A DNA stretch of 64,000 nucleotides from Amphiscolops sp. MND2022 (lineage: Eukaryota), in NCBI GenBank assembly GCA_964187785.1, contig OZ076409.1:68264001-68328000 (forward strand), given 5' to 3'. Both the position numbers and the translations under genes were made by a program. Positions 10,084 to 61,600 of this stretch are shown here, piece by piece (the first letter of the stretch is position 1; every line of letters starts with the position of its first letter). The notes beneath the pieces were generated by a model. The model saw only the letters and a list, made by a program, of their open reading frames with translations, had not been told where the DNA came from and ran no database searches.

Positions 10084-10086
10084 TCT

Positions 10087-10096
10087 GACTGCGCCA
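10087..10096 (-). promoter_or_regulatory. Primer binding site TGGCGCAGTC (probably tRNA-Ser type)
   Basis: Immediately follows the 5' LTR on the minus strand and begins TGG. The tRNA assignment is from recall. Confidence 0.75.
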
Positions 10097-20700: not shown

Positions 20701-21637
20701 AAAAGGATCTAAATTGGAACCCGTGCCTGCTAGAAAGACCATCTTTCTTTTCCAGAAAGGAAAAGTACAAGAGACAGCACACACCATCGCAGTTCTGCCA
20801 GAAGCCGCAAAACACGCAAAGGTATTCTCCAAAAGAGACATAATGCAGGCGTCCAAAGAGCAAAAGGACAAACTCAAGAAGGCAAGAAAACGGGCGATAA
20901 TCGAGGACTCATCGAGTTCAAGTGAGTTGGAGACATCAGCATAAAGAAAGGGAAAGAAGACAAAGTGGGGAAAGTCACTTCCCCCGAAAGTGAACACAAA
21001 GTGGGGAAAGGCACCGACTCCAGAGATGGCTTTCGACCTAGAGAACGAGACGCAACCCTCCATCATCGATATTACCTCAACTATCGAAACAAACGAAAAG
21101 GCGCCAAAAGAGGCAACCCCGCCAAAACAAGAGGAAGCGTCAAAAGAAGAAACAGGCCCATATGATGCAATCCCGATAAAAGCCACGACATCGTGGCAGG
21201 TGGAGAAAAAGGGGCCCATACGATACTCGGAAAAAAAACTTGTGCCTCCAAAACGTTGTGGGATCGATCTGGTCACTGAAGAGACGGAAGGGCCCGAGGA
21301 AGAAGTTAATTAGCTAGCCGCCAGGGCAATCAAGAGACAGTAAAACGATTTTAATTTATGTGTAATTTTGAGTTAATCTACAGTTACATGAATACATTAA
21401 CTACATTTGTTTTAATCTTCGTTGCTACCCAAAAAGGACGAATGTGATAGAGCGATTGAAATGACGCAACCTATTTGTAAACAACTACTGGTATAAAGTG
21501 TATCAAGTTTGAAATTGTCTTGCTTCATTGCGAAAGCCTTTGTTAAAACGAGACAGTCTATTAATATAAATTCATCGTTCATCAGTTTACATTCATTCCT
21601 TCATTTCGTTTTACATTTATTGAGTTCCACGTCAACA
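17704..21637 (+). mobile_element. Gypsy LTR retrotransposon B, 5'-truncated and decayed pol, probable 3' LTR from 21443
   Basis: Protease C-half (IVGRDW), RT (YIDDVII), RNase H (CDASKQGLG, ELELLAI), integrase (HPGRD, CEQC, LDFAGP, GNGKVE). A purine run AAAAAGGACGAA precedes TG at 21443. LTR end uncertain (21584 or ~21637). Confidence 0.85.
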
Positions 21638-22456: not shown

Positions 22457-23718
22457 TGTCAGAACGTGTCGACGTCTCTGGGTTTGATACGTCTCTACTG
22501 TTCTCTTCCCTACTGTTGGTTATTTTATCAGTAAGGGCTCTCACAATACTTGTAAGTTCTCCAATTTGACGATTCATTTCTAGGAAACGTTGTTCGATCC
22601 TGTGTTTTTCATGATCCCTTTCTATGGATCTCGCGTCACTTTCAATATCATTGTTGGAATTAGTTTCGATGTAATGATCCGCTACACTCATTTCGTCATA
22701 TTCGTCAGAGTGTCTATCTATATCAGTCTGTTCAAATCTGCTTTCTCTATTGTATCTTGATCGAGTATTCACCACTGTCGAAGATGTTAAAGTTTTAATA
22801 ATTTGAATTGAAGGAAGTAATTTTAAAGTAATGAACTTTGCAAAGTGCTCTCACAGTACGTCTGTATCTCACGGTAACAAATTTTTTCTCTCTCAATTTC
22901 TCTATCGCAATAGGACCTTCAAACTTGTTACTTGCGCTTGATTGTTTGCGTCTCTCCCACTCAACTCATTTTGGCTAACCTGCTTTTATCACCTCATGGT
23001 ACATTACGGGACTGGTCACTTCAGTCGTCGCTAATTACCATTGAAATCTTTATATTTCTGTTCCCGCACCAGCTTGTATCATTGATCTCATATCACAGCA
23101 CGTACTAATTTACAACTAATGATCAAAATGGTCAAGCAAATTTACTTGTAGTATTTTCCCAATTAACAATTTCAGCACACTAATCACAAATGACGACTAA
23201 TGTTCAAAGTCGTTGTTGGTAATTTTATACTATAGGTCAACTAAATGACTGTATATGAACTAAACAATGCTCTAGTAACGGAACTATCAATGATTTAGGT
23301 ATGAAGAACTGCATGTACATATGGGTAAAAAGTACGACTAGAAATGCTAGTCGTTTACATGAATGAATAATGTATTTCGCTAAAAGGTTACTAAATTCGA
23401 CTATATGTTTTCGTCGTTACTGTGAATCAGGTGAATGGAGCGTATTTATGTACTTTACAAAGCATGAGGTTAAAATGCACTGTAGATTTTTGTTTTAGCT
23501 GTTTTTGGTTTGTGGTTGGAACGACTAATAGTATTGGTCGTTGTTTAGCACAATTTTGTATTTCGCAGCACAGGTGAAATTGGAGTGACGACTGAACGAT
23601 ACAGTCGTCCATTATATGAGTTTACATGTATTCTAAAATGTTTTATAGTTGAATGGTTTGGGTAATTGATGATGACTTCATTCTTCAGTTGTTGTATTTC
23701 ATACCATCCGGTATGACA
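22457..23718 (-). repeat. 3' LTR of Gypsy C (1262 bp)
   Basis: Direct repeat of 36509-37772. PPT AAAGAGGCGGAG (minus, 23719-23730). Confidence 0.95.
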
Positions 23719-24614
23719 CTCCGCCTCTTTGAAAAAGAAGCAAGTGGGCGGGAAAACGGAGGGAGTTCAGGTGTGGCAAGCATTTGTGTTTATTGTAAGT
23801 GGCGGTTAAAAGGTTGGTCACCTTTTTCACTGGTTGGTTTATGGATCTCGAGTTTAGACTGGTATAAATAGTCGTCGTGAGTTGCAATCAGTTATAAGTT
23901 TACTCTCGGATAGGTGGAAGCAGAGTTGATCCGTGACGTCACTTGCATCGTAGTGTTGTGGAGTGGAAGTAAAAAGTTCGGAGTGGAAATCAGTATGCCA
24001 CCTCATCCGGTCTTGCGCTGGTAAGAGGAAATGTCGTGCTGAGTAAATAGTGAGAGAGCCATAACCGCGGCAGTCGGCTTTTGCTCGGTAATGTAAACAC
24101 GTTCGATGCAGTGAGTCGTTTCTTTCGTTTTCCATTTTCGTTACTCGTGTTTGTGTAAACTCTTCATAACCGCAGCATTTGGTTGTGCATTGTATAATTG
24201 TTAGTATCAGCTGTGTTATTCACAAATCGTTTTTCTCGCGTTCCATATTGCTGTTTCATTATTCTTGTGATTATTGGCTTTTGATTGTTCCCGTTATCAA
24301 CTTTATCCTCTCATCACTTTTGTTTCTCGGAGGCTGAGGTCGAATATGTTCCGGTCTGAAGGGTTTTAATGAATGGTTAAGAACATAAGTAGAAAAAACG
24401 ACTACAATGATCAGAGGTAATTAGACTCTGTTGACATTTCTCATTGGGGTGATTTCCACTCTCGGTACCATACATGACGGTAACTTTTGAGTAATAAATA
24501 GTGTTGGCAATTCAAATAAAATGTAGTTGATCAGGCCACATATTCGGTTTCACCAACGTTGAAGTATTGAGTCGTCGTTCTTCTATTTTGGAACTTATCC
24601 CTTTGTACCATCGT

Positions 24615-27600
24615 ATGTCCGATCCGGGCGGTGCAACTTTCGATCCTGACTTATGGTCGTTGGTGTCATTTGCTGAGCAGAGTTAACAGGAATTAGAGGA
24701 GATGGCTTCAGGCATTGAAGCACATTCAGAAGAAGCGCTGGCCGCTGAGGCTGAACAATTGGACTTGCCGTGTTGTCAATTCGCCGGGCGAGTTACGTCG
24801 ACGTCACTCGGTGGCATGAACGCGTTGTTGGAACTTGCTCTATCCGATGAATTCAGTGAGTACTCTTCTTGTGACTGCGTTATTCTGGTTGCGGGCACTA
24901 TGTCTTGTCTCGCCATTTGTGTTTTGCTCGAGTCTTTTCTACCCCCTTTTTTCTTTTTCTTCAGAGGTATACCATAGCATTGCTGTGCAAAAGTCCGTTG
25001 TGTTTTGTATTATTTGGGTAGTATTAGCGCACTTTAGCGTTAGGCTATACAGGGGTGCCTCATGATCAGATATTGATTCCATCTTTTGCCTCATTCGTAG
25101 GTGACGTAGATGTTCCGACGTTACTCAACTACATCCGAGCTTTCCCGCGGGGAGATATTCCAGAGGGCGTGGCTCCTCCAGACTGTGTGGGCGAGCGAGT
25201 GCACCAGTTGATGGACGCGCAATTGGGTTAGTGCTGCATCGGAGCTTCGTTGTTATTGCATTTAAAGTCGTGTAGTAGCGTAGAATTGTGTTGGTTTGGT
25301 TCCGTTCATTGTCAGGAACGGGTAGCATCAGTTGGTGAGGGGAAACTAATCAACATGCCAGAATCAGTATTGTTTGGTTTTAATAGGGACAGAAGACTGT
25401 GCAGTTCTGTCGTTGGAGGATCTTTTGGAACGAGTGGAGACCCGACTGGAGAAGTGCGTGAGCCAGTTGACGAAAGCGATTTTGGAGTCCTCTTTGGGAG
25501 AAGTTGGATCAGCCGGGGCACTCCGTGTTGATGAATTTTGGAAGACTTTCAAGACTCTGCAAGGAATTCTTGTGAAGCAACGTGCTGATGTGGCGACTCG
25601 TAGGGCGATGCCTTCAATTGATTTGTCGTCCTTGGAGATAGGCAGTTCGGGTACTATTTCTTTCTGGTTCCGGGGGTTCTGGAACTGGATCTTATGTGCC
25701 AACTGTGTTTGGAGGTCCTGGATCTGTGACAGCGGCTGACCAGCCTGGTGTCGGGACATCCGCAACTCCCAAACGTGGTAAAGACTTTCAAGATCACATG
25801 TAATGTTATACTAACTTTTGGACCGAACTAAAGCATTAAGGCTATTTCTAGGCGTGTAGAGTTTCTTGCAGGGGGACATAGACAGTAGCTTGAATATCCA
25901 TGGTGTTTTTTTGTTTAATTGTTGTTTTAGTGACGAAGAGGAGGCTCAATACTTTGAAACCGTCCTATTTCGTTTCAAGTGTTGTGGGCTTCTTTGTCGG
26001 GTTTCCACGGCATAAGCGTGTGCTCGATGGTTCCGCGCGTTGTTTGATGTGTCGGGTGGACCTCAGCATTGCAGGTCGTGGCTTGCAGAATTTATGGGGT
26101 CATTGGAAGGGTGCGAAGCATACACGATTAGAGCAGAAGTTTCGCATAATGATCCAACGTCCGTTACTGGATAAATCGTGTCGGTTGGTCTCAGCTGAAG
26201 AAGATAGGACGATACGACTAGAACGCATCGTCGAACCACCAGTTTAACTGGAGTCTCCTATTAGTTTGTCCCTGGAAGAACGCGTTGCGTTGGAGCGTGA
26301 AACCGAAGAAGAAAACTCTCGGCGAGTTCTATCAGAAGAGAGTGCTTCGTACTTGTGGTTGTGTTTCTCCTTGAACTGCTTTGGAACAGTTACTGGTTTT
26401 GAATCACTGATGCGTTTGATGGACGGGTGGGCTAGCAGCTTGAGAGGAGAACTGAGTTTTGTGGCACGGAGTCTTACTGTTGCGAAATGTCAGGTATCGT
26501 TGTATTCCGTGTTTGTTTTCCAATTTAGGTTCTTTGTACCGGGGGGGGGGGTCGTAATGTTCTGTAAAATGCATGTTACATGTACTAGGACTTATATGTT
26601 ACATGGTGTGAGGTATGTTGAATGTTGGAAGGTCTGTATTTTTGTTTGTTTAGAGTTTGCTATTATATGGGGTGTACCCGTACGTGATTGAGAAAATGAG
26701 TGGCTTCGTACATTCTGGGAGTCGAATGGGTCTCCGAGTGTACTCTGACGGAAATTTCTGGCGGGTCGACTGTCATTTCGTAAACGAAACCGAATCGAAG
26801 ACCGTTACTCTGGTTACTTGGCCGTGGGGTGACCGTTGGAAGGAGGAGGTGATCGGCTTAACTGTCACTTTTCTGTCGTGATTGGATCCGTTGCCGAGTT
26901 TGTGTAGTGTTGTAGTGGACACCCATGTCGCTGTTGGCTGGTCGTTGGCCCATTTTGGACCTGCGGGCAAGTCGGTTGTGATGCGTTTTTACGATGTACT
27001 GTGTTTGATTACAGCGGAGCATCCGGCAGCAGTTTCGTCAGCGTATCGGTGGTTTGGACCCTTACTACGTGCTTGAATTCCTCAAGTACCGACTGTCAAG
27101 TGTAGTGAATGGTTCAGTTTTCGACAGAATGCCCTTGTTATGACAGGTACCTTGTTATGAGTTTCTGGGTATACGGTGTTCAAATTGTATGCGTGTTGTC
27201 TAGTTTGTTTCAAAATAAAAACAGTGATGATAGGAGTAGGACTAAGGTGTTAGGGCGTCCCATACTTCCATCTCACGGGTTAAATGTTGATAATGTTTTT
27301 TTTACAGTACGTGCGGAGTGAAGAATTGACCTTACCGCAGTTGGCTGCCGTGTGTGGAAAGCTAGTTGAACGGTGGGACGATCTGGCAGTCTACTTTGGC
27401 AATGAGGGCATTGGGTGCACGATGGAGCTGAGATCGATCCCCAGTCTGAATTTTGTCATTCTAAATGACCGATTGGCTCGACCGCAGATGGCTATGCTAA
27501 GATGGTTATTGGACAAAGGCGAGTATGAACGTTTGGTTGCGAGTTTTTTTGTTGTTGTTTAGTGGTTGTCTGGGCAAAAGAGAAAAAAAGTTAATTGATC

Positions 27601-28948
27601 GAGAAAATTGGTTGTAGTATTTCTCTTTTTTAATGTTCGGTTAAGGGTGGGAAACTGATTTCGCTTAGGCCATAATTTTGATGGTTGGGATGTTCGTTTT
27701 AGTCGTGACGTCTTTTCCTCGAGGGTGTACGAACTGTCGTGACCGCGACCTATGTTTGAAGTCGAGTTTATGACATTCCTTCGACGACTGAGATGTACGG
27801 TCCAAGATGCAGACAAGGTCCCTGCAGCGTTTGATCACGATCTTCTGCTCAGTACCAAGCTGATTGAGCTTGGTGTTGTTCCTCAGGAGCGATACAAGGC
27901 TTTGTTCGTCCAATACTTTGGGCTTCGACGTTCTCGACCAGCAGCGCGTGTTATATCGAAAGATCCAATTGTTCGTGGCTAAATTATGCGAAGGTCTTGT
28001 TGCTGATTAGCATTCGGATTTGGAGGGAAGACTTAATCTCTCTGCATTTGCTCCCGAGGCTCTTTACAGTCGTTCAAAAGACCGAGTCGTGGATTCCCTA
28101 ATGGACTGTTGTTTGTTACTGACTCGTCTAGATTTTCTCAGTGGCGTTCAGGGTGCCAAAGTTGTCCAGCAGTATGATGAAGTTTACAATTATTTTTTGC
28201 ACCGTTGGCTTAGTCAGTCATCTACTGGTCCTATGGTTGATGATATCATTACCTTGTGGCGGTCTTATCCCTTTTGGTCGCGTTGTGCGGATTTCTTGGA
28301 TGTCTTCAAAATCGTCATTTGTTGTTCTGGTCGAAGTCAGTATGTAGCTTATTTTCTGGATGTCGGAGTGACTGCTCTAAGTCAAGAGCAAGTGCTATCG
28401 AGCATGAACTTAGTTTGCAGTCGGACAAGTGCGGCGGCGCAAGGAAACTGATGACTGGATTTCTCCGTCACTGTGAGACTACAGATATGCAGGTGTCCCG
28501 ACTGATGGATCCTGAGAGAGGTCGGCCCTGGGATCAATTGTTGAAGGTGGGCGTTGATGAGGTGTTGTCTCGATGTTATCGTGTCATTCACGAAGGAACT
28601 GTAGAATCGCCGGGCATTTCAGTCGACGACTATAGATCAGCGATGTGTGCGCAGTTAAGGAACAGTGCTGACGACGTACAAGCACAGACGAAGAGCCGAT
28701 CCCGTAATGCTGCGCCGCGTAGGTCTCTTGTTACTTTCTCTGTTGCTGATGATGAGCCCCCAATTCGTCATGTTGCGCGTGGAAGACGGCCTCGTTCTCA
28801 GAAAGATGTGAGTTTACCTTCCAGTTCACGTGGTAGTAAAGGGAAGGAAACCGCTAGTGCAGAGCCCGTTTCGAAGAAAACAGCAAAGAAGGCCGGGAAG
28901 CGAAAGTTGGCGAACGTTATGATGAGTGAATCATCAGAAGAGTATTAG
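24615..28948 (+). pseudogene. Antisense multi-exon gene in Gypsy C: BED-like zinc finger plus degenerate hAT-transposase-like protein
   Basis: Phase-compatible exons 24615-24855, 25101-25226, 25387-25777, 25931-26493, 26654-27146, 27308-27518 and 27669-28948. Introns are GT-AG except a GC donor at 27519. Contains CLMC-x16-H-x5-H. Collinear homologue in element D. Several premature stops and frameshifts. Confidence 0.75.
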
Positions 28949-30483: not shown

Positions 30484-33400
30484 TTACCGTTGCTTCGTCG
30501 TTGGTGTTTGGCAGATCATTGTAGTTAGTTGCAGCTTCATCGGGTTCGGCCCGATATTCGTCGCCAGTACTGACGATGGAATCGTCAATTGGTGGTACGA
30601 AGGTTTGAGGAGAGTTTCGGGGATAGGTTGTGCCATTTGTCGGTCCGTTAACCTTTGGACGCGTTCGTAGTATATGATACCATGTTCGATATCGAGCTCT
30701 TCAGGGTCTGCTAGTGCGGGAGTTCTCTCAAAGTGGATTGTCTGAGGTAAGTGGTCGTTGAAGAGCTCCTGATCGTCATGCGCTTCAGGATCAGCAAAGA
30801 ATAGATTTTGATCTTCGTCAATGTCTTGTATAGGTGTGTTCGGGATGAAAAGACGTAGTCGCATCCTGTGGACGCATTGTGTGCGTAAAGTATCGACTTT
30901 CCTAATTACGTAGTTGAAATTAGTTAAGACTTTTACTACTTTGAAAGGGCCTTCCCAATTGAAGTTATTGAAGGCAATTTTGTCTGACTGGTCAGTGATT
31001 TTCGGGTTGAGTAGGAACACAAAGTCATAAACTTTCAGCGGTGATGCCTGAGTTTCACGGTCGTAGCACCTTTTGTACTTGCGGTTGGCTTGAAGTATGT
31101 TATTGCTGACTTGTTTGTATTTCTCATTCACTTGGTCGATCAATTTCGTAAAATCAGTTTCTTGTGTTCGGCATTGCAGGGGATTGCTGAACTTGAGTTC
31201 TAGTGCGTTAAACGGTACTCTACCATGAAACACTTCGCTAGGGGTGCATTTAAGTGCTTGGTGGTAGGTTGTGTTATGGGCCATTACTGCGAGGTTAACG
31301 CACTTGTCCCATTGGGGAGAGTCAGCTGCGACGTTGATTTTCAGTATCAGCTTTTGTCTTTGATGGGAACGTTCAACCATCCCTATGGTCTGTGCGTGCT
31401 TTACAGTTGCGTGCTCGATTTGTATTCCGGCAGTTCTCATTATTTCGGGCATGATGCTGGATGTGAAGGCTGAGCCTTTATCGGTTATGATTGTCTTCGG
31501 GATGTAGGCATGGTGAGTAAAAATCTGCATCAGTGCATTTAGTACGGATTTAGTGTCGATGGTTTGCGAATCGGAATAGCGAACAGGTAGCGCGAGAAGT
31601 AATCGCACGCCGTCAGGATGTGCGTATATCCATTTGAGCAGGGCATTTCGCCTACCAGATCAATCTCGAGTATGTCTTCAGGACCATTGCAGGGGTCATA
31701 GATCTTCTCTAGAGGTGGAGTTAGGCGTTTTGGGTAACTGGGTTTAGCTTTTAGACAATCCGTACAGTTGCTAACGAATTTTCAAACGTGTTCACTAAGA
31801 TTAGGTATGTATTAACGCTTGCGGAGTTCTACCAACATTTTGGATGCCTCAGGGTGTCCCTGCATGGGGTCACCGTGCATCGTCCTGATTATGGGCATCG
31901 TAGTTCCTGGAGGTACTACAATTTGTTTAAATAGAACTCTACCAGTGTCATCAAAAAAGTTCCTAGACAAAACCTTGTTGACCACTTCAAGGCGTTTTCT
32001 ATTGTTTCACGAGTTTTTGGAAAAAAGAGCTGGTAAAATTTACGTGGTTAGGAAGAGGTTTGTTGTTAACTAAGACTCGAACCATTTTTTGGACGTCTTG
32101 GTTACTTAGTTGTTCCTGGACTATTTGTGAATCCCTTTGCGGGCATACCTGGTTTACCGGGTTGGGGTGCGGTCTTCTGGTAAACTTCGTCAGCATGATG
32201 GAAGGAGCTTCACCTGCTATGACTGGCTCGAGGTGACGACAGATGATCTGGATCATTCTAGCTCGGTCGTCGTCATGCTGGTGTTGGGTGTCCGCGAGGG
32301 AATGAAGCAAGGATTGTATTTGATTGAAGGCATCTTGAGTTTTGAGTTCGTTAAGTTGGTTCTGTTCCAGGGGTCAGCTGTTGTAGGCTGTTGTGGTTCA
32401 TCAGGATCGAAGTCTTCTTCATCGTCGTCTTGTTTTGGAGTTTTGCTGCCAGGTCAATCTCTATGGAGTGGACAGGGATCTGGTCGTTAAATTTCAGGTG
32501 GATCCCGTTTTCGGGGTTAATGTCGAGCCTGGACAGGTAGTCAGCGGCTGGGTTTTCAACACCTGGTACGTGGGCTAATACGAAGTCGAATTGCAAGGCT
32601 TGGTTGCAATGATTCCACAGTTTCGGTGAGATCCGCTTCGATTGGAAAAAGTGGGTTAGCGCTTTGTTGTGTGTCATCACGATGGTGGGTTTCTTCACTC
32701 CCCACAGTATGTGAGCGAACTCGTCGAAGGCGAAATGCATGGCTAAAAATTCTTTCGCCTACATAGTCAATGACATTTGGCCTTCAGTGAACCGTTGGGA
32801 GCCAAAAGCAACGGGTGCATATGTCTTCTTCTTGTCGTCGTTACCTTCGGTGTAGTCTTCGATGAACAGCACGTACCCTGCTGCGTGTTCGCTGGCGTCA
32901 CACATGATGTCAAGTTGTTTGTCAGGTAATGGCAATCTGAGTGACAGTTTCGCAGCTCGTGCTAGATTTTCGTTTATGTTGAAAATCGCATCCTTGTGTA
33001 CCTGCTTCAGTACGAACTTGACATCTTTTTGCAGTAGTTTGTACAGTGGGACGAGCTTCTCAGCCAATTTCGGAATGTATTGTCTGTAGAACTGGACAAT
33101 TTCGATGTACCGCTGGAGCGATTTGGCTGATGTTGGCAGTTTCAGCTTTTTGAGGAAGTTGTCAATGCGGTCTTCGAGGGGTGCGATGCCCTTGGTGGTT
33201 ATGCTTCGACCCAGGAGTTCGATCTTCGGGTGTCCGATGGCGCACTTTGACATCGAGAGTTTCAAGCCTGCTTTCTGTATCTGCTGGAAAACTGCTTCGA
33301 TGTTGGCAACCAGTTCGTCCACGTTGGTTGCAGCTACTCCAATGTCGTCAACGTTTTGTGCACATTTGTCTGCTTTTACTAGTGCATCAAGGTACTCCCG

Positions 33401-34940
33401 GATTGTGCTGTTGAATGCAGACAGTGATCAGTTCAATCCTTAAGCGAGACGAAGGTATGCAAAGGTTCTGCTGCCAAAGTTAAATGCAAGAAGTTGGATT
33501 GATTGTTCATTGGCCATCTGAAGGCAGTGGTAAGCTTGTGAACAATCAAGCTTGCAGAAGTACTTCTTGCCAGCCATGTGTTGAGCTGCATCTGCTATTG
33601 TTGTGATTGTGTTGGTTGTAGTCGTTCTTGAGAAGGTGATTGATGCGTCTCAAGTCGACTAGTTTTCGAAATTTTCCATTTGGCTTCCATTGTGCAAATA
33701 TCGGGGTAGAAAATTTGCTGTACGGAAGAGTAGTGATGACTCCGTATTCTTGCATCAGGGCCAATTCGACAAGGAGATCATCGTTCATGTTGGTCGGAGT
33801 CAGTAGGCTCTGTGCGTACACTGGGTCGTCGTGTTTGGGTGTAAGCTTGATTTTGAAATCAGTGTTGATGCCTTTGTCGAGGCAGTGGCGTGCAAAAATC
33901 ATGTGGTATTTGACCAGTAGTGCTTCGATCCTCTGTTGCTCTTGCTCTGTGAGGATCGAGTTGTCCCAGCTGAAGTTCTTCAGGAACGTCTGTCGTTGGT
34001 CGTCGTCACATGTGGGATCGAGTTTCTCGGCTTCTCGGAGTTGAATGATTTCGTCATATATTTGGCGCTCAATTTTATTGAGTTTGTCGGAGTCGTCGCA
34101 TGTTTCCGGGGTTGGGTACCATCGCTTGTCCTTGGTTGCACTGGGCTCCTGGAACAACTGATTGATCACATTGTTTGCTTCATCTGGAAATTTGGAAATG
34201 AGGGTCAGTTGTTCGTTTGTCATTGGTTGGACGTTCTTCGCTTGGTTTGGGGTCAAAATGCGGAAAACTGCGACTGTTGTGTGTTGTGGAATCATTATTG
34301 CGTGGTCCAAATGGTTGGTGATTTGAACATGGCTCTGCTGCTTGTTTATTTCGGACATCGATGGAGACACCAGTAGTTCCGTCTTGCGTTCGAATGCCGG
34401 GAACGCTTCCACTGTGCCTGTTACATTACCAATGTCTTTTTCAGCAATGACTGGGACGAATATTTGTTGTCGGGGTGAGATGGTTGTCTTCTGTGATGCC
34501 CTGAGCTCCAACGTTTGTAATTTGAATTTCCCGTTTTGTGGCTTCAGTTGGAGGGTGATATCTGGAAATCTGACAATGTTGTTTGCGAGGTCTAGGGTCA
34601 CAGAGTATTTTTTGAAGAAGGATATTCCGATCAAAACTCTTCCCATTAAGGGTAATATCATGAATGTTTCTTCGAACACTTTTCCACCAATAAAAAGTCG
34701 GAGGAGAAACTTGTTTCCGTACCGGAACGATACTTCCATTGGCAATTTGGACTTTGAATTCCGGCGCTGGGTATTCTTCAAGTTGGGCGGCCGGGTGGGC
34801 TTGCAGTATCCGTCGGAGTTCGTTTTTAGACATTGCACTTTGTATTGCTCCTGTGTCCAGTAGTCCTTGGTTTTCGTATGCTCTAAATTGTAGGAGAACA
34901 TAGAGCATTCTATTTCGTTTGTCGAGTTGTAATGTCGCAC
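30484..34940 (-). pseudogene. pol (PR-RT-RH-IN) of Gypsy C, frameshifted
   Basis: LLDTGAIQS protease; RT (KLVDLRRIN, NVDDIG); RNase H (CDASEHAAG); integrase (TDKGSAF, GMVER, WEGPF). Closely parallel to D pol. Confidence 0.92.
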
Positions 34941-35504
34941 TGAGGGGCCTGACAGTTGTTGGTTTTAGGTGGTTAGGCTACTTCAGTTAGGGTGGGTGTT
35001 TCTGGTTTTGCACTTTCGCCTGGGTGGGCGTCTTGTGCGTTGTTGACTCCCTTGTAGTACAGTCTTTAAATGTACATGTGGGATCATCGCCAACTTGTGG
35101 GAGTCTGTTTTAGTTTTTGGTGGATACTTTGTGTACGTAGTATTTCTTAGATTGCAGAGTCCGGTTGTCAGAATGCTGCCGACATTCTGACGTCTGAGTC
35201 ATCGAGTCGTCGGAGTAGTTGGTCTGTGGCTGTTTGCGCGCACTTGTAGTCTGGTTGCGTTGTGGATGACGTGGCTTTACAAGTTTCTTGAATTCGTGTT
35301 GAATTCTTCGTTGTACTCCTCGTCATAGCAGTCGTTGTGACCTTCGGTCTGTGTGGGCTCAATTGTTACTTGTGACACCTGGTATGGCGGTTGTCGGGTA
35401 TTTTGGGATTGTCGGAAACCCCGGCGGAACTCTCGGTTCTCTGTCAGGGACTGTTTCTGGTAGGGTACGTTCTGGTACGCTGAGGCGACCTGGACTCAAT
35501 TTCT

Positions 35505-36827
35505 TCAGTCTTGTGCAGAGTGCCCAACTTTTCCACAGATTTGGCACACGAGCTTCGAGTTGTATCTAGGTTTGTTGGTCTGGGACTGTTGGTTGTTGTT
35601 GTCTGGTTGAGGGCGTTGGTAGGTTTTGGTTTTAATTCCGTTGGCTTCGTCCCTGAGACGTTTTCGGCATTCAATCCATTTGTGACCGACAATGTTGCAA
35701 TATCGGCAGTTGCCTTCAAATTTTCGTTTGACCTCCTTGTTTGTAGTTGTTTTCCCTGAGTTATTGGTAGTAGCTGTTTGTTGATTGGCTTGCTGTTTTA
35801 CGGGGTAATTCTGGAGATTGTTCAGTGGTTGCATCCCTGAAGTGTTAGATAGCAGTTGTGCGTATTGGCAGCGTCTCTGGACAAAAGTCTTGATTTCTTC
35901 ACTAGTTGCTTCGTGTTTTCCTGCCATTGCCAGCTCATTTTGTATCTGGATTGGTAATTTGGCGAACAGGAATGTTTCGGCTATGTCATTGGCTTTGTCT
36001 CCGTACGCTTGTTTTGCTAGTTTTTTGAATTTTGTGAGAAAGTCAGCAAACGACTCCGTTGTTGGATCGTATCTCATTTGGTCGAATTTGTACTTCGATA
36101 CTTGCTTGAGGTTGTCTTTGGCATACTCTTTGTTAAATGCCTGGAGAATCTCAGTAAGCGTGGTTTCGGTCGTAATCTTCAGGGTTTGCCAGAAGTCGAT
36201 GGCATCGTCCCTGAGGAGGCTTTGGAAGTAATTTAATTCCTGTTCTTCCGTCAGTATATGCATGTGTGACCGGAGGTGGTTTTTGAGTAGATGTTCAAAC
36301 TCATTATACTTCTCTCGGTTCCCGCGGAAGAGGGGGACCTGCGTTTGGAGAATTTTTGGCTGGATCACTCCATCGGTCATAGTTGCTCTGAGGTGTTGTA
36401 TTTCTGACATGACGTCTCCCATTTGTGGATCCTGTAGTGAATGGGGGGTTGTTCTTGGTGGTTGAGCATTGGGCGTAGGAAGTGGGTTTGCCGAGACTCC
36501 TGTCACCATGTCAGAACGTGTCGACGTCTCTGGGCTTGATACGTCTCTACTGTTCTCTTCCCTACTGTTGGGTATTTTATCAGTAAGGGCTCTCACAATA
36601 CTTGTAAGTTCTCCAATTTGACGATTCATTTCTAGGAAACGTTGTTCGATCCTGTGTTTTTCATGATCCCTTTCTATGGATCTCGCGTCACTTTCAATAT
36701 CATTGTTGGAATTAGTTTCGATGTAATGATCCGCTACACTCATTTCGTCATCTTCGTCAGAGTGTCTATCTATATCAGTCTGTTCAAATCTGCTTTCTCT
36801 ATTGTATCTTGATCGAGTATTCACCAC
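35505..36827 (-). CDS. gag: gag of Gypsy C (C-terminus continues after a frameshift)
   Basis: 440-aa ORF with CCHC knuckles CRYCNIVGHKWIEC and CQICGKVGH. Starts inside the 5' LTR. Confidence 0.88.
   Translation of the reverse strand: MVNTRSRYNRESRFEQTDIDRHSDEDDEMSVADHYIETNSNNDIESDARSIERDHEKHRIEQRFLEMNRQIGELTSIVRALTDKIPNSREENSRDVSSPETSTRSDMVTGVSANPLPTPNAQPPRTTPHSLQDPQMGDVMSEIQHLRATMTDGVIQPKILQTQVPLFRGNREKYNEFEHLLKNHLRSHMHILTEEQELNYFQSLLRDDAIDFWQTLKITTETTLTEILQAFNKEYAKDNLKQVSKYKFDQMRYDPTTESFADFLTKFKKLAKQAYGDKANDIAETFLFAKLPIQIQNELAMAGKHEATSEEIKTFVQRRCQYAQLLSNTSGMQPLNNLQNYPVKQQANQQTATTNNSGKTTTNKEVKRKFEGNCRYCNIVGHKWIECRKRLRDEANGIKTKTYQRPQPDNNNQQSQTNKPRYNSKLVCQICGKVGHSAQD
36496..36508 (-). promoter_or_regulatory. 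PBS TGGTGACAGGAGT (tRNA-Leu-like)
   Basis: Directly follows the 5' LTR; an identical 13-mer is the PBS of element D. The tRNA assignment is from recall. Confidence 0.8.
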
Positions 36828-37772
36828 TGTCGAAGATGTTAAAGTTTTAATAATTTGAATTGAAGGAAGTAATTTTAAAGTAATGAACTTTGCAAAGTGC
36901 TCTCACAGTACGTCTGTATCTCACGGTAACAAATTTTTTCTCTCTCAATTTCTCTATCGCAATAGGACCTTCAAACTTGTTACTTGCGCTTGATTGTTTG
37001 CGTCTCTCCCACTCAACTCATTTTGGCTAACCTGCTTTTATCACCTCATGGTACATTACGGGACTGGTCACTTCAGTCGTCGCTAACTACCATTGTAATC
37101 TTTATATTTCTGTTGCCGTACCAGCATGTATCATTGATCTCATAACATCACAGCACGTACTAATTTACAACTAATGATCAAAAATGTCAAGCAAAATTAC
37201 TTGTAGTATTTTCCCAATTAACAATTTCAGCACACTAATCACAAATAACGACTAATGTTCAAAGTCATTGTTGGTAATTTTATACTAAAGGTCAACTAAA
37301 TGACTGTATATGAACTAAACGATGTTCTAGTAACTGAACTATCAATGATTTAGGTATGAAGAACTGCATGTACATGTGGGTAAAAAGTATGACTAGATAT
37401 GCTAGTCGTTTACCTTAATGAATAGTGTTTTGCGCTAAAAGGTTACTAAATTCGACTATATGTTTTCGTCGTTACTGTGAATCAGGTGAGTGGAGCGTAT
37501 TTATGTACTTTACAAAGCATGAGGTTAAAATGCACTGTAGATTTCTGTTTTAGCTGTTTTTGGTTTGTGGTTGGGACGACTAATAGTATTGGTCGTTGTT
37601 TAGCACATTTTTGTAATTCGTAGCACAGGTGAAATTGGAGTGACGACTGAACGATACAGTCGTCCATTATATGAGTTTACATGTATTCTAAATTATTTAT
37701 AGTTGAAAGGTTTGGGTAATTGATGATGACTTCATTCTTCAGTTGTTGTATTTCATACCATCCGGTATGACA
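36509..37772 (-). repeat. 5' LTR of Gypsy C (1264 bp)
   Basis: Direct repeat of 22457-23718, followed by TSD CCAAG. Confidence 0.95.
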
Positions 37773-44740: not shown

Positions 44741-45197
44741 TTCAACCACGATTTCCGCACGCTAGAAATACAACGCGCGACACACGACTTTCGACTCAAC
44801 CGACTACACGCAACCGTCCAATGAAGAAATTGCAGCCTTCACTGGACAAACGACCAAAAGCTGACGATGTCTATCAGCGAAGACTTTCCAACGATGAAAA
44901 AGCGATGGGAAATGCACGTCAACACAACGGCAGCCGGTTTTCCCCACTCGCTGAAATCAACGATGAACATGAGATGAACTGGCAACACAACACCATGAGG
45001 CAGGTGGATGATGCCAAAGAGATGGCTACCAACCATTTTCACCACGACTCGACTTCCCACACAACAAACAACAAACGGCTTAGTATTAAAAAACATGCAA
45101 CGCAAAATAGTATTAACGATTCAAAAGCTAAAAAACGTGCAACTGAAACAGAAATTCACGTTCTCAGTCCCACCTTACACTTAAATAAAAAGACAAA

Positions 45198-48100
45198 ATG
45201 CTTTATGTCCCTCTTCAGTTTGACAAATATGAAAAACACGCTCTTTTAGACACAGACGCAATTCAAAGCGCAATGTCTGAAGCAGAATTGCGAAAAATAA
45301 CCACGGCTCATCCAGAAGCCATCCTTCAAGAATTACCCCCACCGAACTTCAAAATCCAAATAGCGAATGGAAACTTAGTCCCAGTACGCAAACAAGTCTT
45401 ACTTAGATTTTATGTTGCCGGAAAAGTCATTGAAGAAACGTTCCTGATCCTTCCAACAATGGGAACAATTTTAATTGGAATGTCTTTTTTTGAAAAGTAC
45501 TCAGTTAATTTAGACATCAAGAACCATCTTGTCCACTTCCCCAAGCACATGATGTCCATGCAAGTTAGACAGCAAAAGAACAACAAATTTAAGACTGGTT
45601 TAATCAATTTGTGTTCCAGTAATAGAACAGTGATCCCTCCTCTACATCAAGTGATGATACAGGTCCACAGTGACGCGGACATCTCACTTACAACTGGTAC
45701 AGTTGAGGGTTCACCTGCCTTCATGCGAAAGACGTGTTTGCTTGTTTCCCCAGCTTTGGCTGACCTCGATGAAGGAAAGACGACAATACAGGTCACCAAT
45801 CCGAACAACCACACGTTCACACTTGATGCCAACACCACTCTGGCACACTTTCGCATACCGACACCACATCAGGCGGCCAACATCACGCCCATGCCAGTGG
45901 AACACTTGAACTTGATCACCAAGTACCCAGACGAGGCGGAAGCAGTGATCAACCAATTGTTCGTGAACCCTGACATGAAGTCAACAAAGTGGTACCCAAC
46001 TCCAGAGACGTGCAGTGACCCAAACAAACTCAATGCAATTGAGCGACGAATCTGTGATGAAATTCTGGCACTGCGAGAACTCGAGAAGCTTGACCCGTCC
46101 CAATCCGATGAACAACGGATGAACTTCCTGAAGAACTTCAACTGGGACGAATCACTTCTTACTCCGTCTCAACAGTTACAGGTAGAGGAGTTGCTGGTAA
46201 AGTACAACTCCATTTTTGCTAGACATCGTTTTGATATTAGCATGAACACTGATTTTAAAGTTAAGTTAACCCCACAACACCAAGAACCAGTGTATTCACA
46301 AAGTCTCCCGACTCCGACAAATTTGAAGGACGATTTGCTCGTGGAGTTAGCTCTAATGCAAGAGTACGGGATAATAACTACATTTCCTCATAGTAAATAC
46401 TCGTCTCCGATATTTGCTCAACGTAAACCTAATGGTAAATTGAGAATTTTAGTTGACTTGAGAAGAATAAACCACCTGATCAAAAACGACTACGGAGAGC
46501 ACAATCATCCCGTAACTACAATTGCAGACGCTGCCCAACACATGGCCGGGAAAAAGTACTTTTGCAAACTTGATTGTTCCCAGGCCTACCATTGCATCCC
46601 AATGGCCGACGAACAGTCAGTCCAACTGTTATCGTTTAAGTTTGGTTCTAGAACTTTTGCATTCTTACGTCTAGCACAAGGTCTTAATCGTTCTTTATCA
46701 GCATTCTCAAGTGTAGTCCGTGAGTATTTGGACCCCTTGGTCAAAGCGGATCGATGTGCTCAATATGTTGATGACATTGGAATTGCAGCACATACTCCTG
46801 AAGAACTGATTAATAACCTTGAACTTGTTTTCCAGCAATTGAACAAAGCCGGTCTTAAACTTAGCATGACTAAATGCGAATTTGGACAGAAGCAAATTGA
46901 GTATTTGGGCAAAACCATTTCTAGCACCGGTATTGCTCCCATTGAAAAACGCGTAACAGACTACTTGAGCAAGTTAAAACCCCCCAACTCAGTGAAATCG
47001 TTGCAACGTTACCTTGGTTTTGTAAACTTTTACAGATCATATATTCCCCGTCTAGCTGATAAAACTTGTTGTTTACAGGAATTGATCAAGAAAGACGTCC
47101 CTTTCAAGCTGAGCCAACAACATAAAGACGCTATTTTTGAAATTAACGAAAGTCTATTAAAAGCAACAAAAGTGTCTTTGAAACTGCCATTACCTGATAA
47201 ACAATTGGTAATCATGTGCGACGCCAGCGAACACGCTGCCGGCTATGTTTTGTTAATTGAGGATTATGCTGACCCGTCAGCCAAACAAACATACGCCCCC
47301 GTTGCCTTTGACTCTAAGAAATTTCAGGGAGGCCAGATGTCTCTAACAATGTATGCCAAGGAGTTTTTAGCGATGCATTTTGCATTTGATGAAATTGGCC
47401 ACATTTTGTGGGGTGCGAAAAAACCCATCATTGTTATGACCGACAACAAAGCCTTAACCAGATTTTTTCAGGCGAAGCACATCCCGCTCTCACTGTGGAA
47501 TTTTTGTGATCAAACGCTTCAGTTCAATTTTCTATTAGCACATGTACCAGGAGTTGAAAATCCCGCAGCGGATTACCTATCTCGCCTTGAGATTAGACCT
47601 GAAGATCGTGTCGATTTAAAATTGACTGATACTATTCCCATTCACAGAATCGAGATCGACATCGCTTCCAGAACACCGAAACAGGAGGAAGACGAGCCTG
47701 ACTACTTTCCCATAAGTGAACCACTCAGATGCAAACGCCAGAAGGATGTCAAAGAGATGAACTTGGCACTTGGCATTGATGTGGCTCATGACGATGGGAA
47801 AAGGATGAAGTTCACCAACTGTGAGAGAACAGCGGCCTCATATGAATTCGCGACCGACAATCATCTGACGTACCGCCTCACAGATGTGGACGAGCCAATA
47901 CAGCTCACGCAATTCATCAATAAAGTATCATTATCAAACCCGGTAATGAGTCAGGTTAGCCCCGCTGAGGGGATCGATCTAATTCAGATTCAAGAAACTA
48001 ACTGGGTCATTCAAAAAATGATTAGATTTTTGGAAGGTTCTGAAATTTTGCAACACCCAGTTAGTATGCAAGATCAATTTTTTCAAAAGTTGCACAAAAA

Positions 48101-49595
48101 TCGCAAACGCTTGCAAGTAGTGAACGGTGTCTTGTACAGGCAGTTTTATGATCACACGGGACTGGAGTCTCACAAACAGTTAGTCGTTCCTGAAGACTGT
48201 ATCTTGAAAATCATCAGGACTCTCCACAACAGCCCGGTACAAGGACACCCTGGTTTGAAGAAAATGTTGTACGAACTACGTAAAAGATACTACTCTCCAA
48301 ACTTAGCTTGTAAAGTTCAAAAGGTTCTAGACGGTTGTGAAAACTGCATGAAATCTAAAAGCGTAAAAGAACCGCAACTACGTCCACCGTTACAGAAAAT
48401 CTACGACCCGTGCGATGGACCAGAAGACCTGCTTGAAATAGATATTATTGGTCCACTCCCGGCGTCGAACGGTTTTACGCACATTCTGACGGCTGTTGAT
48501 GTTTTTTCACGCTACCTGTTCGCCGTTCCGCTGAAGAGACCTGACACGCACTCCGTAGTCAGAGGTTTACTGTCAATATTCACGAAACACGCTTATGTGC
48601 CAAAGCACATTCTGACGGACAAGGGCACGGCGTTTACGGCTGAACTTCTCTCTGAAATCGCGAAAACGGCTGATATTCACATCTCCCACGCCACGATAAA
48701 GCACGCACAGACAATAGGCATGGTCGAGAGAACGCACGCGAAACTGAAAAAGACCCTTAAAATTAGTGTAAACGCAGACAGACCACAATGGGACCGCTAT
48801 GTCGACATAGCAATCATGGCCCATAACACAACTTACCACGACTCACTGAAATGTTCACCAACTGAATATTTCCATGGCAGAATACCGTACAACCCACTAG
48901 ACCTGCAATTCCGAAACGCAAACAAGCCGGCTGAAACAAAGTGCAAGGACGTGAATGAAATTCTAGACAAAATGAACATCATCTTCAGAGACAATCTAGA
49001 CAACATCATCTCCGCCTATCACAAGTACAAAATGTACTATGATAGAAAAGCACGAGCGCAGCCACTGAAGGTGAATGAATTCGTGTTCCTACTCGACCCT
49101 AAGTACGACTCTCAGCAAAGCAAGGAAGAGTTTAAAACTTTCCATTGGAAAGGACCGTACAAGGTGATTAAAGTGCTATCTGATAGCAACTACATCATCC
49201 GCAAAGTAGGCACACATCAGACTCAGTGCGTACACAGAATGCGACTGAGGTTGTTCAAACCGGAATTTCCGATTGATGACATCAACGTGTCCAAACATCT
49301 TTACCCAGACACTGAAAGGGTTGAAGACACGGACATTTTCGACTCGAATATTCCGACGACCGACGAAGTAGATCAGAACGAGAATGACAATCTAGATCAA
49401 GACTTAGTCGAAGAAGAGCCTTCAGAAGAAATAGTTCCACAAGTACAAGGACGACACAGTCCACAAGCAATTCCACCAGCAATAACCACGAGAATAGACT
49501 ATCAGCAAGTAGAAACTGACCACAATGACTTTATACCACCTACAGTTAGATTTGGAACGCAAGAGGAAATTATTCTACCGCCCCCCCCGCGATGA
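45198..49595 (+). CDS. pol: pol of Gypsy D (PR-RT-RH-IN); N-terminal extension 44737-45249 and tail to 49830 lie in other frames
   Basis: 1465-aa ORF. Protease LLDTDAI (DTG mutated), RT QYVDDIG, RNase H CDASEH/ENPAADYLSR, integrase HHCC plus EIDIIG/TDKGT/GMVER, and WKGPY. Confidence 0.95.
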   Translation: MLYVPLQFDKYEKHALLDTDAIQSAMSEAELRKITTAHPEAILQELPPPNFKIQIANGNLVPVRKQVLLRFYVAGKVIEETFLILPTMGTILIGMSFFEKYSVNLDIKNHLVHFPKHMMSMQVRQQKNNKFKTGLINLCSSNRTVIPPLHQVMIQVHSDADISLTTGTVEGSPAFMRKTCLLVSPALADLDEGKTTIQVTNPNNHTFTLDANTTLAHFRIPTPHQAANITPMPVEHLNLITKYPDEAEAVINQLFVNPDMKSTKWYPTPETCSDPNKLNAIERRICDEILALRELEKLDPSQSDEQRMNFLKNFNWDESLLTPSQQLQVEELLVKYNSIFARHRFDISMNTDFKVKLTPQHQEPVYSQSLPTPTNLKDDLLVELALMQEYGIITTFPHSKYSSPIFAQRKPNGKLRILVDLRRINHLIKNDYGEHNHPVTTIADAAQHMAGKKYFCKLDCSQAYHCIPMADEQSVQLLSFKFGSRTFAFLRLAQGLNRSLSAFSSVVREYLDPLVKADRCAQYVDDIGIAAHTPEELINNLELVFQQLNKAGLKLSMTKCEFGQKQIEYLGKTISSTGIAPIEKRVTDYLSKLKPPNSVKSLQRYLGFVNFYRSYIPRLADKTCCLQELIKKDVPFKLSQQHKDAIFEINESLLKATKVSLKLPLPDKQLVIMCDASEHAAGYVLLIEDYADPSAKQTYAPVAFDSKKFQGGQMSLTMYAKEFLAMHFAFDEIGHILWGAKKPIIVMTDNKALTRFFQAKHIPLSLWNFCDQTLQFNFLLAHVPGVENPAADYLSRLEIRPEDRVDLKLTDTIPIHRIEIDIASRTPKQEEDEPDYFPISEPLRCKRQKDVKEMNLALGIDVAHDDGKRMKFTNCERTAASYEFATDNHLTYRLTDVDEPIQLTQFINKVSLSNPVMSQVSPAEGIDLIQIQETNWVIQKMIRFLEGSEILQHPVSMQDQFFQKLHKNRKRLQVVNGVLYRQFYDHTGLESHKQLVVPEDCILKIIRTLHNSPVQGHPGLKKMLYELRKRYYSPNLACKVQKVLDGCENCMKSKSVKEPQLRPPLQKIYDPCDGPEDLLEIDIIGPLPASNGFTHILTAVDVFSRYLFAVPLKRPDTHSVVRGLLSIFTKHAYVPKHILTDKGTAFTAELLSEIAKTADIHISHATIKHAQTIGMVERTHAKLKKTLKISVNADRPQWDRYVDIAIMAHNTTYHDSLKCSPTEYFHGRIPYNPLDLQFRNANKPAETKCKDVNEILDKMNIIFRDNLDNIISAYHKYKMYYDRKARAQPLKVNEFVFLLDPKYDSQQSKEEFKTFHWKGPYKVIKVLSDSNYIIRKVGTHQTQCVHRMRLRLFKPEFPIDDINVSKHLYPDTERVEDTDIFDSNIPTTDEVDQNENDNLDQDLVEEEPSEEIVPQVQGRHSPQAIPPAITTRIDYQQVETDHNDFIPPTVRFGTQEEIILPPPPR

Positions 49596-58670: not shown

Positions 58671-61600
58671 GGACCCCCAACACTCTCGTACACACGTAGT
58701 TGATGCGCTTTCAAATAACCTAGGACCGTTGCGCACACACTGCTGGTCACATCGCCGGACAAGCGCCCCACTTCAACACACTTAGTCTCCAACGGAAACT
58801 GCGGACTCTCACATAAACATAATAGGAACCGCAGAAATCGCACTGATGCTTCACTGTCACAGGCTCGTAGGAGGTCGACTTCAGAACCAGCTGTAGATAC
58901 CACACTAGGACCCACTAGAGCACGATAGTTCGACACAAATTTTGTCACACTCCGATCCATACGTCTGCGTTCTGCTGAGGTAACTCGGTTCAGTTCTAAC
59001 TCAGTAAAGTGTCTAGCTTCATTCAAGATGAGATCTTCCTCTGCAATGAACAGAACAGCTGGACAACAAATACCCAAATAGAAGGTCACTTCCTCTTTCA
59101 AACCTTTCACTGTTAGTACTTCCTCCACAACTGTCAACAAGAATTTCTGCACCAGAACCAGATCTTCTTCATATTGAGTAGAATTTGCGTAGTATTCAGA
59201 GTGCACAGAGAGTACTCCTCGCAACAATTCCATTTTGGCTTCACTCAACTCCAAATCAGACACGGTGATGCCCAAACAGGCACGCACATTCGTCACTGGG
59301 GGGAGGTTAGCTTCGTCGACAACATGAACCAACAGAGCTCGTAAAAAGCATGCACTCTCGTATGCCCAATGGCACCCACAAACAGGACTATCGCTGAAGC
59401 TCCATTGATATGAAGTCACTACTAAAACATCACCAATCACGCATAATTGACCATTTGTCCTAAAATCAACAATCCAGCCCCCCCCCCACCAAGTTTAGAA
59501 AAAATCACCCAAATAATCCTTACGAATGAGAACCAAACTAAACAAACTTACGAGCACGGAACACAAGATTTAAAGCATGCAGTCGCACAGGCACACTTGG
59601 ATCGCCGCACAAAACATAATCCAGTGGCTCCGCCGCACCCGCGGCATCAGGCGTCCTGAGCAGTCCACACACGAATAGCCAGTTTTCGTGTAGTTCGGCA
59701 AGAACATCAGGCACATCCCACAACGAAACTTCGCCTTCCAAGACCGACTACAAAACAAACCACAAGATGAAACAACCTTCTACTACACGCAACCCTCTCC
59801 CACAGGAACCATATGAATCGAGTACAATCATTACCATGCATGACCAAAAACGTAAATGGAAAATGCCTATTATACATACCCGCAACAGTTTTGGGCAAGA
59901 CAGCAACATCTCATCCTTCATGAAGGGTTTAAGACGAGACTGCAGGTGATTGAGGATGACATGCACATCAGTACCCCCCAAAACCCGGACACTGGCAGTG
60001 ATCACCACTCTGTTGATGTCCGCCAGTCGCAAAGGTACCAGACTGATTGTTCCAAGTCAAGCACTGGAAGTCAGAGCCCAATTGAGTCGTGGGAACAATT
60101 CGCAATTTAACCCCAGAGGACAGATTTCACCAACAGCACCACAGAGCAGATTGACAATCCATGTAACTAGTCGCCCCTCCCAGTCCTGTGCATAACTGAA
60201 CGAGAAAACGATGTAGTTGGTAATTCCTTCAGCAGTACATATAATCACACGCCCAACGATTCTGTCCGCTACTATCCCAATGGAGAAACTGCTGAACGCG
60301 GACTCAAACCACAGGGTAATCAACCGACGCATTACATAGGGCCACAAACCCAGAATGAACACTCTCTAAACGAACCACATAATATTGTACATACAAAACG
60401 AGTACTCACAACCCGAAGATCATACTTAGACTACAACAGTCAAAATACAAAATTCATTTTATCCTAATCACGCACCTAACAAACACATCATAAAATATAG
60501 CAAATATGATTACCAAAACATCTTCGATTCGGCACTTTAGTCCAAACAGAGTCACATGCTGCGCATCGGTAGCCACCATCAATTCCCATAGCCCACACAC
60601 GCTCGCTAGATCGCAATCCCGATACAAAGCGTCAATAGCTAGGCAGAGGAACAATCGCACAGTACGTTCTAGGCCGTCCGTCTCGTCACGCTCCAGATCG
60701 TCCCAGACAGACCTTCCATCCAGTTCTAACTGAAAAACTTCCGCCGGAGTAGCATCGGGACACCTTTCCACAACAGGCACGGTCACGCCTTCTAAGAGAG
60801 CAGCCTGATTAACACTGGCAGTCGTCGACATCAAATTGCCATCGCGATCGCGCAACGCAAGCCCTCGTCTGAGTCGTACGAGACAGTCGAGACGATGATG
60901 CTGTACTCCACGACAATGTTCCATGAAAGTCGTGATCCCACGACTTGCGACTTTCACATCTCGCTTGCACAGCACACACCGCACGTACGACGCCCGAGAT
61001 TGATGATTCTTCGCATAGCCTAATGCAAGGCCGCAATAGGCATGGTTAAACCAACTGAGAGCAATCCGCTTCTGCCCTGTTTTCAAAACATCATACAAAT
61101 AGAACCATTACTTAACCCCCTACCACCGAAAATCAAAAATTATAACCCAAAACAAGCTCTTACACATCCTTCAAAAACTGAAAAAAGAAAAAACAACCGC
61201 AAACTTCAAAAGGCTCACCCGGAGTGATGAAAAAATGATGTAAAATAATATTTTCATCGGGAAATATAAGCGAAAAACGACGAAAAAACGATAGGATGAA
61301 AAAAAAAGATGTATAAAGCGACTTTTGAACCAAAATTGAGGCATTTCAGAGCAAAAACGATTCAAGGATGAAAAGGAGATGTAAACTGAAAAGAAATGAC
61401 GAAGAGATAAACTAAAACCCAAACGAGAAAATTCCAAGGATGTAAAAGAGATGGAATATAGTAAAAATGGCTAAAATGTGAAAAGGAAGAAAACACCACG
61501 CTTGAAAACTTTGAAAGATGAGAAAATGATGAAAAGTGAAAACTTGAACAAACCATCTGACGAAAGTTCTAAAACGATGGGAAATAGATGGAAGGACTGA

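Follow-up and report, generated by a model that had tools for sequence, protein, structure and literature searches.

A spliced antisense gene resembling hAT transposases inside Gypsy retrotransposons of Amphiscolops

We analyzed a 64,000-nucleotide (nt) stretch of the Amphiscolops sp. MND2022 genome (contig OZ076409.1, positions 68,264,001 to 68,328,000; hereafter the window, numbered from its first letter), in which a Gypsy retrotransposon, element C, carries a seven-exon gene on the strand opposite to its own genes, between pol and the 3′ long terminal repeat (LTR). We call this gene the cargo. Our analysis indicates that the cargo is kept by selection, resembles hAT transposases, and is exchanged between nearly identical element backbones. 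The overall account that we favor, in which a captured and catalytically dead hAT-like protein acts as an activator or anti-silencer directed at its own element, has by our estimate a probability of ~45%.

Structure of the cargo gene and selection on its exons

The exon model was fixed by an alignment of the element C cargo to 11 of its relatives in this genome (68 to 90% DNA identity). All exons lie on the forward strand of the window: exon 1 (24615..24855) encodes an acidic N terminus; exon 2 (25101..25226) is followed by exon 3 (25387..25777), which is helical and then turns into a low-complexity linker; exon 4 (25931..26493) contains a BED-like C-x2-C-x16-H-x5-H finger and the helices after it; exon 5 (26654..27146) contains an RNase H–like core and the start of a helical insertion; exon 6 (27308..27518) contains a helix with an invariant W-x-D and is followed by a GC donor; and exon 7 (27703..28948, stop codon at 28946-28948) encodes a helical region, a W-x-x-Y-P-x-W motif, and a basic low-complexity tail. 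Introns 1 to 6 measure 245, 160, 153, 160, 161, and 184 nt and have phases 1, 1, 1, 0, 0, and 1. In the 11 relatives, splice donors are GT or GC in 64/66 cases and acceptors are AG in 63/66. Gap runs number 333 per kilobase (kb) in introns versus 38.8 in exons, and in exons, but not in introns, mismatches gather at a single codon position (0.65/0.07/0.02 at 26220, for instance). Splice-site conservation, low exon gap density, and the codon-position pattern together argue that the exons did not arise by chance. The spliced seven-exon gene opposite pol, proposed earlier from the window sequence alone (the original prediction), is thus borne out across the relatives, and the four peptides quoted in that prediction are all found in element C in the order given there. 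We discarded 26511 as a possible donor of exon 4, since its use results in an in-frame stop in most relatives. The intron 6 donor (27519) is GC in C, L002, L003, L005, and L006 and GT in L009-L015.

The original prediction missed that the cargo copy of element C is itself broken. It is a pseudogene with three in-frame stops (24684 in exon 1, 26245 in exon 4, and 26879 in exon 5) and five frameshifts (near 25657 in exon 3, near 27002 in exon 5, and near 27754, 27920, and 28431 in exon 7), and the claimed match of intron phases holds only once these breaks are allowed for. At least one exon break is present in 11 of the 12 aligned copies, element C included; one copy is unbroken throughout. Among more distant copies, exons 4 to 7 splice into open frames in L046, L047, and L049, and in L047, splicing of all seven exons leaves about 1,090 codons open. 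Some L047-subfamily copies (e.g., P0001) read from exon 4 across intron 4 into exon 5 in a single open frame of 450 to 477 codons, which explains the read-through protein reported by gene callers.

A second element of the window, element D, is related to C. Its pol is an open frame of 1468 amino acids (aa) at 45189..49595 on the forward strand (Pfam), and its antisense cargo occupies 58671..63133 on the reverse strand, with exon 4 at about 60514-61080. The cargo genes of C and D are homologous (24.7% identity, E value of 3e-7 in a self-comparison of the window), with their fourth exons 25% identical. Introns 4 to 6 agree in position and phase between C-type and D-type genes; the exon 4 proteins of the two types are about 21 to 25% identical. 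The two elements also have in common a 13-nt motif upstream of the cargo start codon (24526..24538, forward strand, in C; about 63236-63248, reverse strand, in D). This motif, which recurs in 13 C-type loci and, as a variant, in L046 and L047, may be a promoter or a signal in the 5′ untranslated region.

The ratio of nonsynonymous to synonymous substitution rates (dN/dS) was computed for exons 4 to 7 in close pairs of copies for which dS was calculable. In exon 4, the proportions of nonsynonymous (pN) and synonymous (pS) differences were 0.103 and 0.770 for C versus L012 and 0.028 and 0.765 for L046 versus L049, and close pairs overall gave a pN of 0.03 to 0.10 against a pS of 0.74 to 0.85. 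The dN/dS values were 0.084 for exon 5 in C versus L012; 0.034 for exon 4 in L046 versus L047; and 0.024, 0.028, and 0.044 for exons 5, 6, and 7 in L046 versus L049. This comparison across copies, proposed with the original prediction, yields ratios of 0.02 to 0.08 in close pairs, far below 1, a sign of strong purifying selection on exons 4 to 7. Distant pairs gave 0.2 to 0.6, with saturated dS and poor alignments. Exon 7 rows labeled C(mid), which were out of frame, were left out. In exons 1 to 3, codon periodicity is present. Overall, the cargo is almost certainly a real gene kept by selection.

Resemblance to hAT transposases and fate of the catalytic residues

The finger ligands (CCHH) are kept in 25 or 26 of the 26 exon 4 rows. 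Pfam scans of the cargo exon frames and their relatives yielded no family above cut-off; the top family for exon 4 was zf-BED, which matched 5 of 16 members with a best E value of 0.0015, below the curated cut-off. One of the two PDB matches to the finger was the BED domain of ZBED2 (E value of 0.6, a weak match). The predicted model of exon 5, with a predicted local distance difference test (pLDDT) score of 82.5, has an RNase H fold with a helical insertion, features whose specificity for hAT is moderate. When this model was compared to known structures with Foldseek, as had been suggested earlier, Hermes was the top match (E value of 0.0019) and also took ranks 3, 4, 7, 10, and 20; in a second Foldseek library, a viral hAT-family protein ranked third. 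VIA-align placed 138 of the 163 exon 5 residues onto Hermes residues 154-375, the longest alignment among the 50 rows listed. Farther downstream, the Trp of exon 6 is invariant (6/6 rows), is preceded by Arg in C-type copies, and is paired by hhalign with the hAT RW motif, with a spacing that suits a later helix equally. The W-x-x-Y-P-x-W motif of exon 7 aligns with the Dimer_Tnp_hAT region, which Pfam matched in none of 48 relatives. A profile of exons 4 to 7 aligned colinearly, over 512 columns, with nine hAT proteins of this genome, and the alignment score (26.4 versus ≤18.6) was above all 30 of 30 block shuffles; pairwise z scores of the cargo against the same nine proteins were at most 3.7.

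Several observations limit the case for a hAT origin. No single test of it reached significance; the exon 7 model has a pLDDT of 43, and Foldseek with this model was uninformative; and neither Pfam nor the exon 7 model confirmed a hAT match for the C-terminal half. The ESM Atlas search gave low recognition of the cargo and no usable match. Of the hAT-type peptide order proposed originally, a BED-like finger upstream of an RNase H core that best matches Hermes is supported; the C-terminal dimerization region could not be confirmed. Taken together, we consider derivation of the cargo from a hAT transposase likely. The competing possibility is that the hAT likeness is generic and that the source of the cargo was some other DDE/RNase H protein that has a helical insertion (a Mutator or P-like one, or an unrelated protein of the host). 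This possibility draws on the unmatched C-terminal half and on the VIA-align results, where Hermes is not singled out and is slightly outscored on the core by ISCth4. We regard it as unlikely, given that hAT proteins appear at or near the top in two Foldseek libraries, that the upstream finger is of the CCHH type with zf-BED as its top family, and that the colinear alignment exceeds all shuffles. Mutator and P transposases use other finger types.

The genome measures 1.07 gigabases, and canonical hAT families are abundant in it: All 150 scored matches were over the Pfam cut-off, and several of the loci L051-L064 contain long open transposase frames. None of the nine hAT proteins sampled from this genome is a close donor of the cargo, and homologue searches retrieved family members only (4, 72, and 13 proteins); the representative search gave 199 proteins. 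Since five of the sampled hAT loci have single frames of 597 to 697 aa, we consider that the cargo introns may come from an intron-bearing hAT donor or from a domesticated host gene or may have been gained after capture.

The first catalytic Asp column contains Asp in 32 of 58 rows and lacks it in D-type genes; the second contains Asp in 36 of 58 rows and lacks it in the L046/L047/L049 group. The cargo of element C has Asp at both positions. Glu is present in 8 of 65 rows at a register set by eye, and the hhalign register contains no acid. The columns aligned with what we take to be the CxxH motif, located after the second Asp in hAT transposases, are mostly Arg/Lys and Asp, with no Cys or His. 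A further Asp is conserved in exon 7 (38/65 rows). The invariant DDE triad of hAT transposases is thus absent from the cargo; ZBED genes, in contrast, retain it, according to the excerpted text of PMC3606216. Judged from these alignments, the cargo protein is very probably dead as a transposase. The catalytic acidic motifs had earlier been called unrecognizable, which is correct for Glu but not for the two Asp residues, both present in element C and partly kept in relatives. Of the proposed capture of a catalytically dead transposase, the selected antisense gene stands, the hAT origin is probable, and catalytic death is probable from the loss of Glu and CxxH, though both Asp residues survive in the sub-lineage of C.

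Linkage to Gypsy pol and exchange between backbones

Element C is a Ty3/Gypsy LTR retrotransposon by its LTR ends, target duplication, primer-binding site, polypurine tract, and domain order. As predicted, it is bounded by LTRs and a target duplication: the 3′ LTR (22457..23718, TG..CA) and the 5′ LTR (36509..37772), both on the reverse strand, are 97% identical in the self-comparison (34 differences in 1261 aligned bases), and the 5-base pair (bp) duplication CCAAG lies outside them. The polypurine tract (23719..23730) precedes the 3′ LTR, and the primer-binding site (36495..36508) follows the 5′ LTR. On the same strand, Pfam recognizes gag (35505..36902; Retrotrans_gag and CCHC) and a pol in pieces (30484..34977), which is itself broken; gag, reverse transcriptase (RT), RNase H, and integrase follow the Gypsy order. 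The end of the integrase frame, at 30484, lies ~6.77 kb away from the 3′ LTR, in agreement with the ~6.7 kb given earlier. An ARAGORN tRNA-Ser call within the pol region (33117-33201, forward strand) is probably spurious.

In the genome searches behind the following counts, the best 150 matches, of 773 to 3115 candidates, were scored each time. In all five divergent cargo loci, an integrase is located ~5 kb downstream on the opposite strand. Among the first 55 of the 150 exon 4 matches, 45 have an antisense integrase partner (median distance, 4.3 kb); of the 10 unpaired matches, 2 lie between LTR pairs and 2 in a tandem LTR array. When 150 D-type exon 4 matches were compared to 97 D-type integrase matches, 32 antisense-downstream pairings were found, 29 of them at 4.0 to 6.2 kb, with a chance expectation of about 0.2; other arrangements accounted for 3. 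All 11 LTR pairs spaced 12 to 17 kb contain a cargo exon in the orientation seen in the window. The predicted position of homologues, antisense between pol and the 3′ LTR, thus holds wherever the context was checkable. The linkage appears less than complete when counted from the integrase side: 41 of 106 integrase matches have no cargo exon among the 77 exons compared, and at least one of these 41 has an exon 5 match, among the matches listed, in a separate search. With lists limited to the best matches, sister families with about 70% identical integrase may carry the cargo or lack it. Around the cargo of element C, the one copy inspected for this, no flanking inverted repeats were found (best flank matches of 9 bp, E value of about 4), nor was a combination of terminal inverted repeats and an 8-bp target duplication of the hAT type, as an independent insertion would leave. 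One locus (G000:C6:4697433-4705491) contains LTR and cargo fragments in a tandem array, apparently without pol between them. A relative in the database, P0057, shares just 28% identity with its best match here, so that the cargo family probably exists outside this assembly. Metagenome contigs gave 236 pattern matches to the cargo, none of which was confirmed.

The original prediction did not foresee that the cargo behaves as a cassette swappable between near-identical backbones. The pS between L046 and L049 is 0.69 to 0.77 in the cargo and 0.083 in the integrase; between L048 and D, it is 0.76 to 0.79 and 0.19, respectively. D-type integrases 95 to 97% identical to that of D are accompanied by exon 4 alleles whose identity ranges from 58 to 98%. 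Elements D and L050, whose pol is 94% identical, are 92 to 98% identical upstream of exon 4, switch in intron 3, fall to 52 to 67% over exons 4 to 7, and return to 95 to 100% about 350 nt beyond the cargo stop; the exchanged block closely matches the transposase-like exons. In L046, L047, and L049, the divergent block is the entire cargo gene with its upstream region. Recombination between co-packaged genomes in the course of reverse transcription would account for this pattern most simply. As the cause of the cassette divergence, a mutation rate raised locally is disfavored by the sharp boundaries.

Proposed function and known systems

Packaged genomic RNA is the strand opposite to the antisense gene, so that introns are copied along and are not spliced out before reverse transcription. 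The six introns of the cargo survive retrotransposition because the reverse-transcribed RNA reads the opposite strand. To be expressed, the cargo would need an antisense transcript of its own, whose start most likely lies in the 0.9 kb adjoining the 3′ LTR. The resulting protein of about 1,090 aa, combining an acidic N terminus, a BED-like finger, a hAT-like scaffold, and a basic tail, would not cut DNA; it would enter the nucleus, oligomerize, and bind a short motif in its own element, keeping the element transcribed or shielding it from silencing, and divergent alleles would be exchanged by template switching. The combination of an invariant finger with a noncatalytic transposase scaffold suggests DNA binding, and since a passenger gene is under selection across many lineages, we infer that the cargo helps the element to replicate. 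BED domains of Hermes recognize short subterminal repeats, as far as the available part of PMC10368747 goes. We give about even odds to the cargo being an element-directed DNA-binding activator or anti-silencer.

The same protein could instead serve as a cofactor of integration or of the particle, attaching to integrase or to the ends of the cDNA and anchoring the complex at favored chromatin or DNA motifs. Holding DNA ends is what a transposase scaffold is made for, the finger is invariant, the tail is basic, and Pfam shows no chromodomain on the integrases, which makes a separate targeting factor possible. A tight partner would, however, be expected to track the integrase, while integrases 95 to 97% identical pair with the widely diverged exon 4 alleles, and D and L050 differ over exons 4 to 7 despite their similar pol; we therefore find this role improbable. 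Equally improbable, in our view, is that the cargo serves competition or immunity as a module subject to frequency-dependent selection, the alleles of which repress, exclude, or escape other alleles or active hATs by poisoning oligomers. Many deeply diverged alleles (saturated pS) with sharp boundaries on near-identical backbones, in a genome with many canonical hAT families, would suit such a module, but plain recombination also yields cassette mosaics without selection on diversity, and the cargo is too distant from the nine sampled hATs for obvious hetero-oligomerization. A nuclease or transposase still active with altered catalytic residues is very unlikely: At both N-terminal catalytic positions, Asp is more frequent than any other residue, and it recurs in exon 7, but neither N-terminal Asp is invariant, entire sub-lineages lack one or the other, Glu is not conserved at either candidate register, the CxxH columns contain no Cys or His, and there are no inverted repeats as substrate. 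That the cargo rides along neutrally, either as an old nested insertion of a hAT or as chance open frames that multiplied with the element, would fit the predominance of broken copies, yet any retrotransposon gene is expected to acquire breaks once inserted, pol is broken too, and the low dN/dS between lineages, conserved splice sites, codon-position pattern, intron positions common to the C and D types, and lack of inverted repeats leave this reading a negligible probability.

A further reading, less likely than not, is that of an interchangeable specificity cassette, whereby many deeply diverged alleles of a dead DNA-binding transposase would be swapped among near-identical backbones in an arms race over silencing or between elements and would have helped the lineage to expand to many hundreds of copies.

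Antisense open reading frames (ORFs) lying between pol and the 3′ LTR have been described in the plant Gypsy elements Retand, Grande (gene23), RIRE2, and PvRetro13 and in fungal Boty; their origin and function are called unknown in the portions available of PMC11963269 and PMC7264820, where the lack of similarity to other transposable elements is taken to argue against a nested origin. In the same portions, Retand pol-to-LTR regions measure 2.9 to 6.6 kb, and Grande has its own promoter and a nuclear protein. Like these ORFs, as summarized there, the cargo is antisense, lies between pol and the 3′ LTR, and is kept in most copies. Unlike the Retand/Grande type, for which these texts give TRP28/SMC-like domains, it has six introns and resembles a whole hAT transposase; TRP28 (PF04195) had no match in our Pfam scans. 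With hAT transposases (Hermes, Ac/Tam3, Buster), the cargo has in common a putative BED-like finger, the RNase H core, and the helical insertion in the same order and spacing, but it lacks the DDE triad, CxxH, and inverted repeats, is longer by about 250 residues at the N terminus, ends in a basic tail, and is moved by an LTR element. Reuse of a transposase as a regulator under purifying selection is also seen in vertebrate ZBED genes (excerpts of PMC3606216). Plant SLEEPER is another host-domesticated hAT gene. A regulatory role for the cargo is our proposal. Both ZBED and SLEEPER are single-locus host genes, whereas the cargo is multicopy, mobile, and mosaic, its “host” being another transposon. 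As an accessory factor of foreign origin, the cargo resembles VANC of Mutator-like elements and the plant mobile domains (PMD) encoded by Gypsy elements (PMC13547354 and PMC5418596, in extract), from which it differs in fold and origin, VANC/PMD being MAIN/PMD-like and plant-specific. Anti-silencing is demonstrated for VANC in the extract of PMC13547354 and would be an analogy for the cargo. A sense ORF of sunflower Athila is labeled Transposase_32 in the accessible part of PMC11728184. A hAT-derived spliced gene inside LTR elements was not found in the full-text literature searched (titles and abstract openings, with supplements, subscription journals, and repeat databases outside the scope), and a prior mention may exist. 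Antisense extra genes in LTR elements are already known; the hAT-like spliced cargo and the cassette exchange appear to be new.

If hAT-derived, the cargo allows an antisense extra gene to be traced to its source, a class II transposase retained by an element of class I, and shows that transposons, and not only hosts, can domesticate transposases. The cargo is also a six-intron gene able to travel within a retroelement. Cassette alleles on near-identical backbones provide a natural experiment in which insertion sites, expression, and chromatin are comparable between alleles from genome data alone.

The last exon of the element D cargo is split by a BEL/Pao-like element (52139-58670; DUF1759, 96% identical LTRs, 5-bp duplication GGACC) and resumes near 51947-52138. 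The presence of BEL/Pao elements in the window would fit an animal host. The nearest PDB matches of the RT of D are foamy virus and Ty3 RTs, and ~240 residues of its pol between RNase H and the integrase zinc finger (47451-48200) have no Pfam or PDB match. The spacer between pol and cargo of D (50099-50540) contains at least three repeats with a period of ~140 nt, also present in L048 and L050, which are candidate binding sites. Within the BEL/Pao-like element, there is a 24-nt tandem repeat (53128-53439). To the left of element C, the window contains an extra integrase frame (19343-20944, forward strand; rve, Integrase_H2C2) and a 1,484-bp tandem duplication (9840-12804, 99.5% identical).

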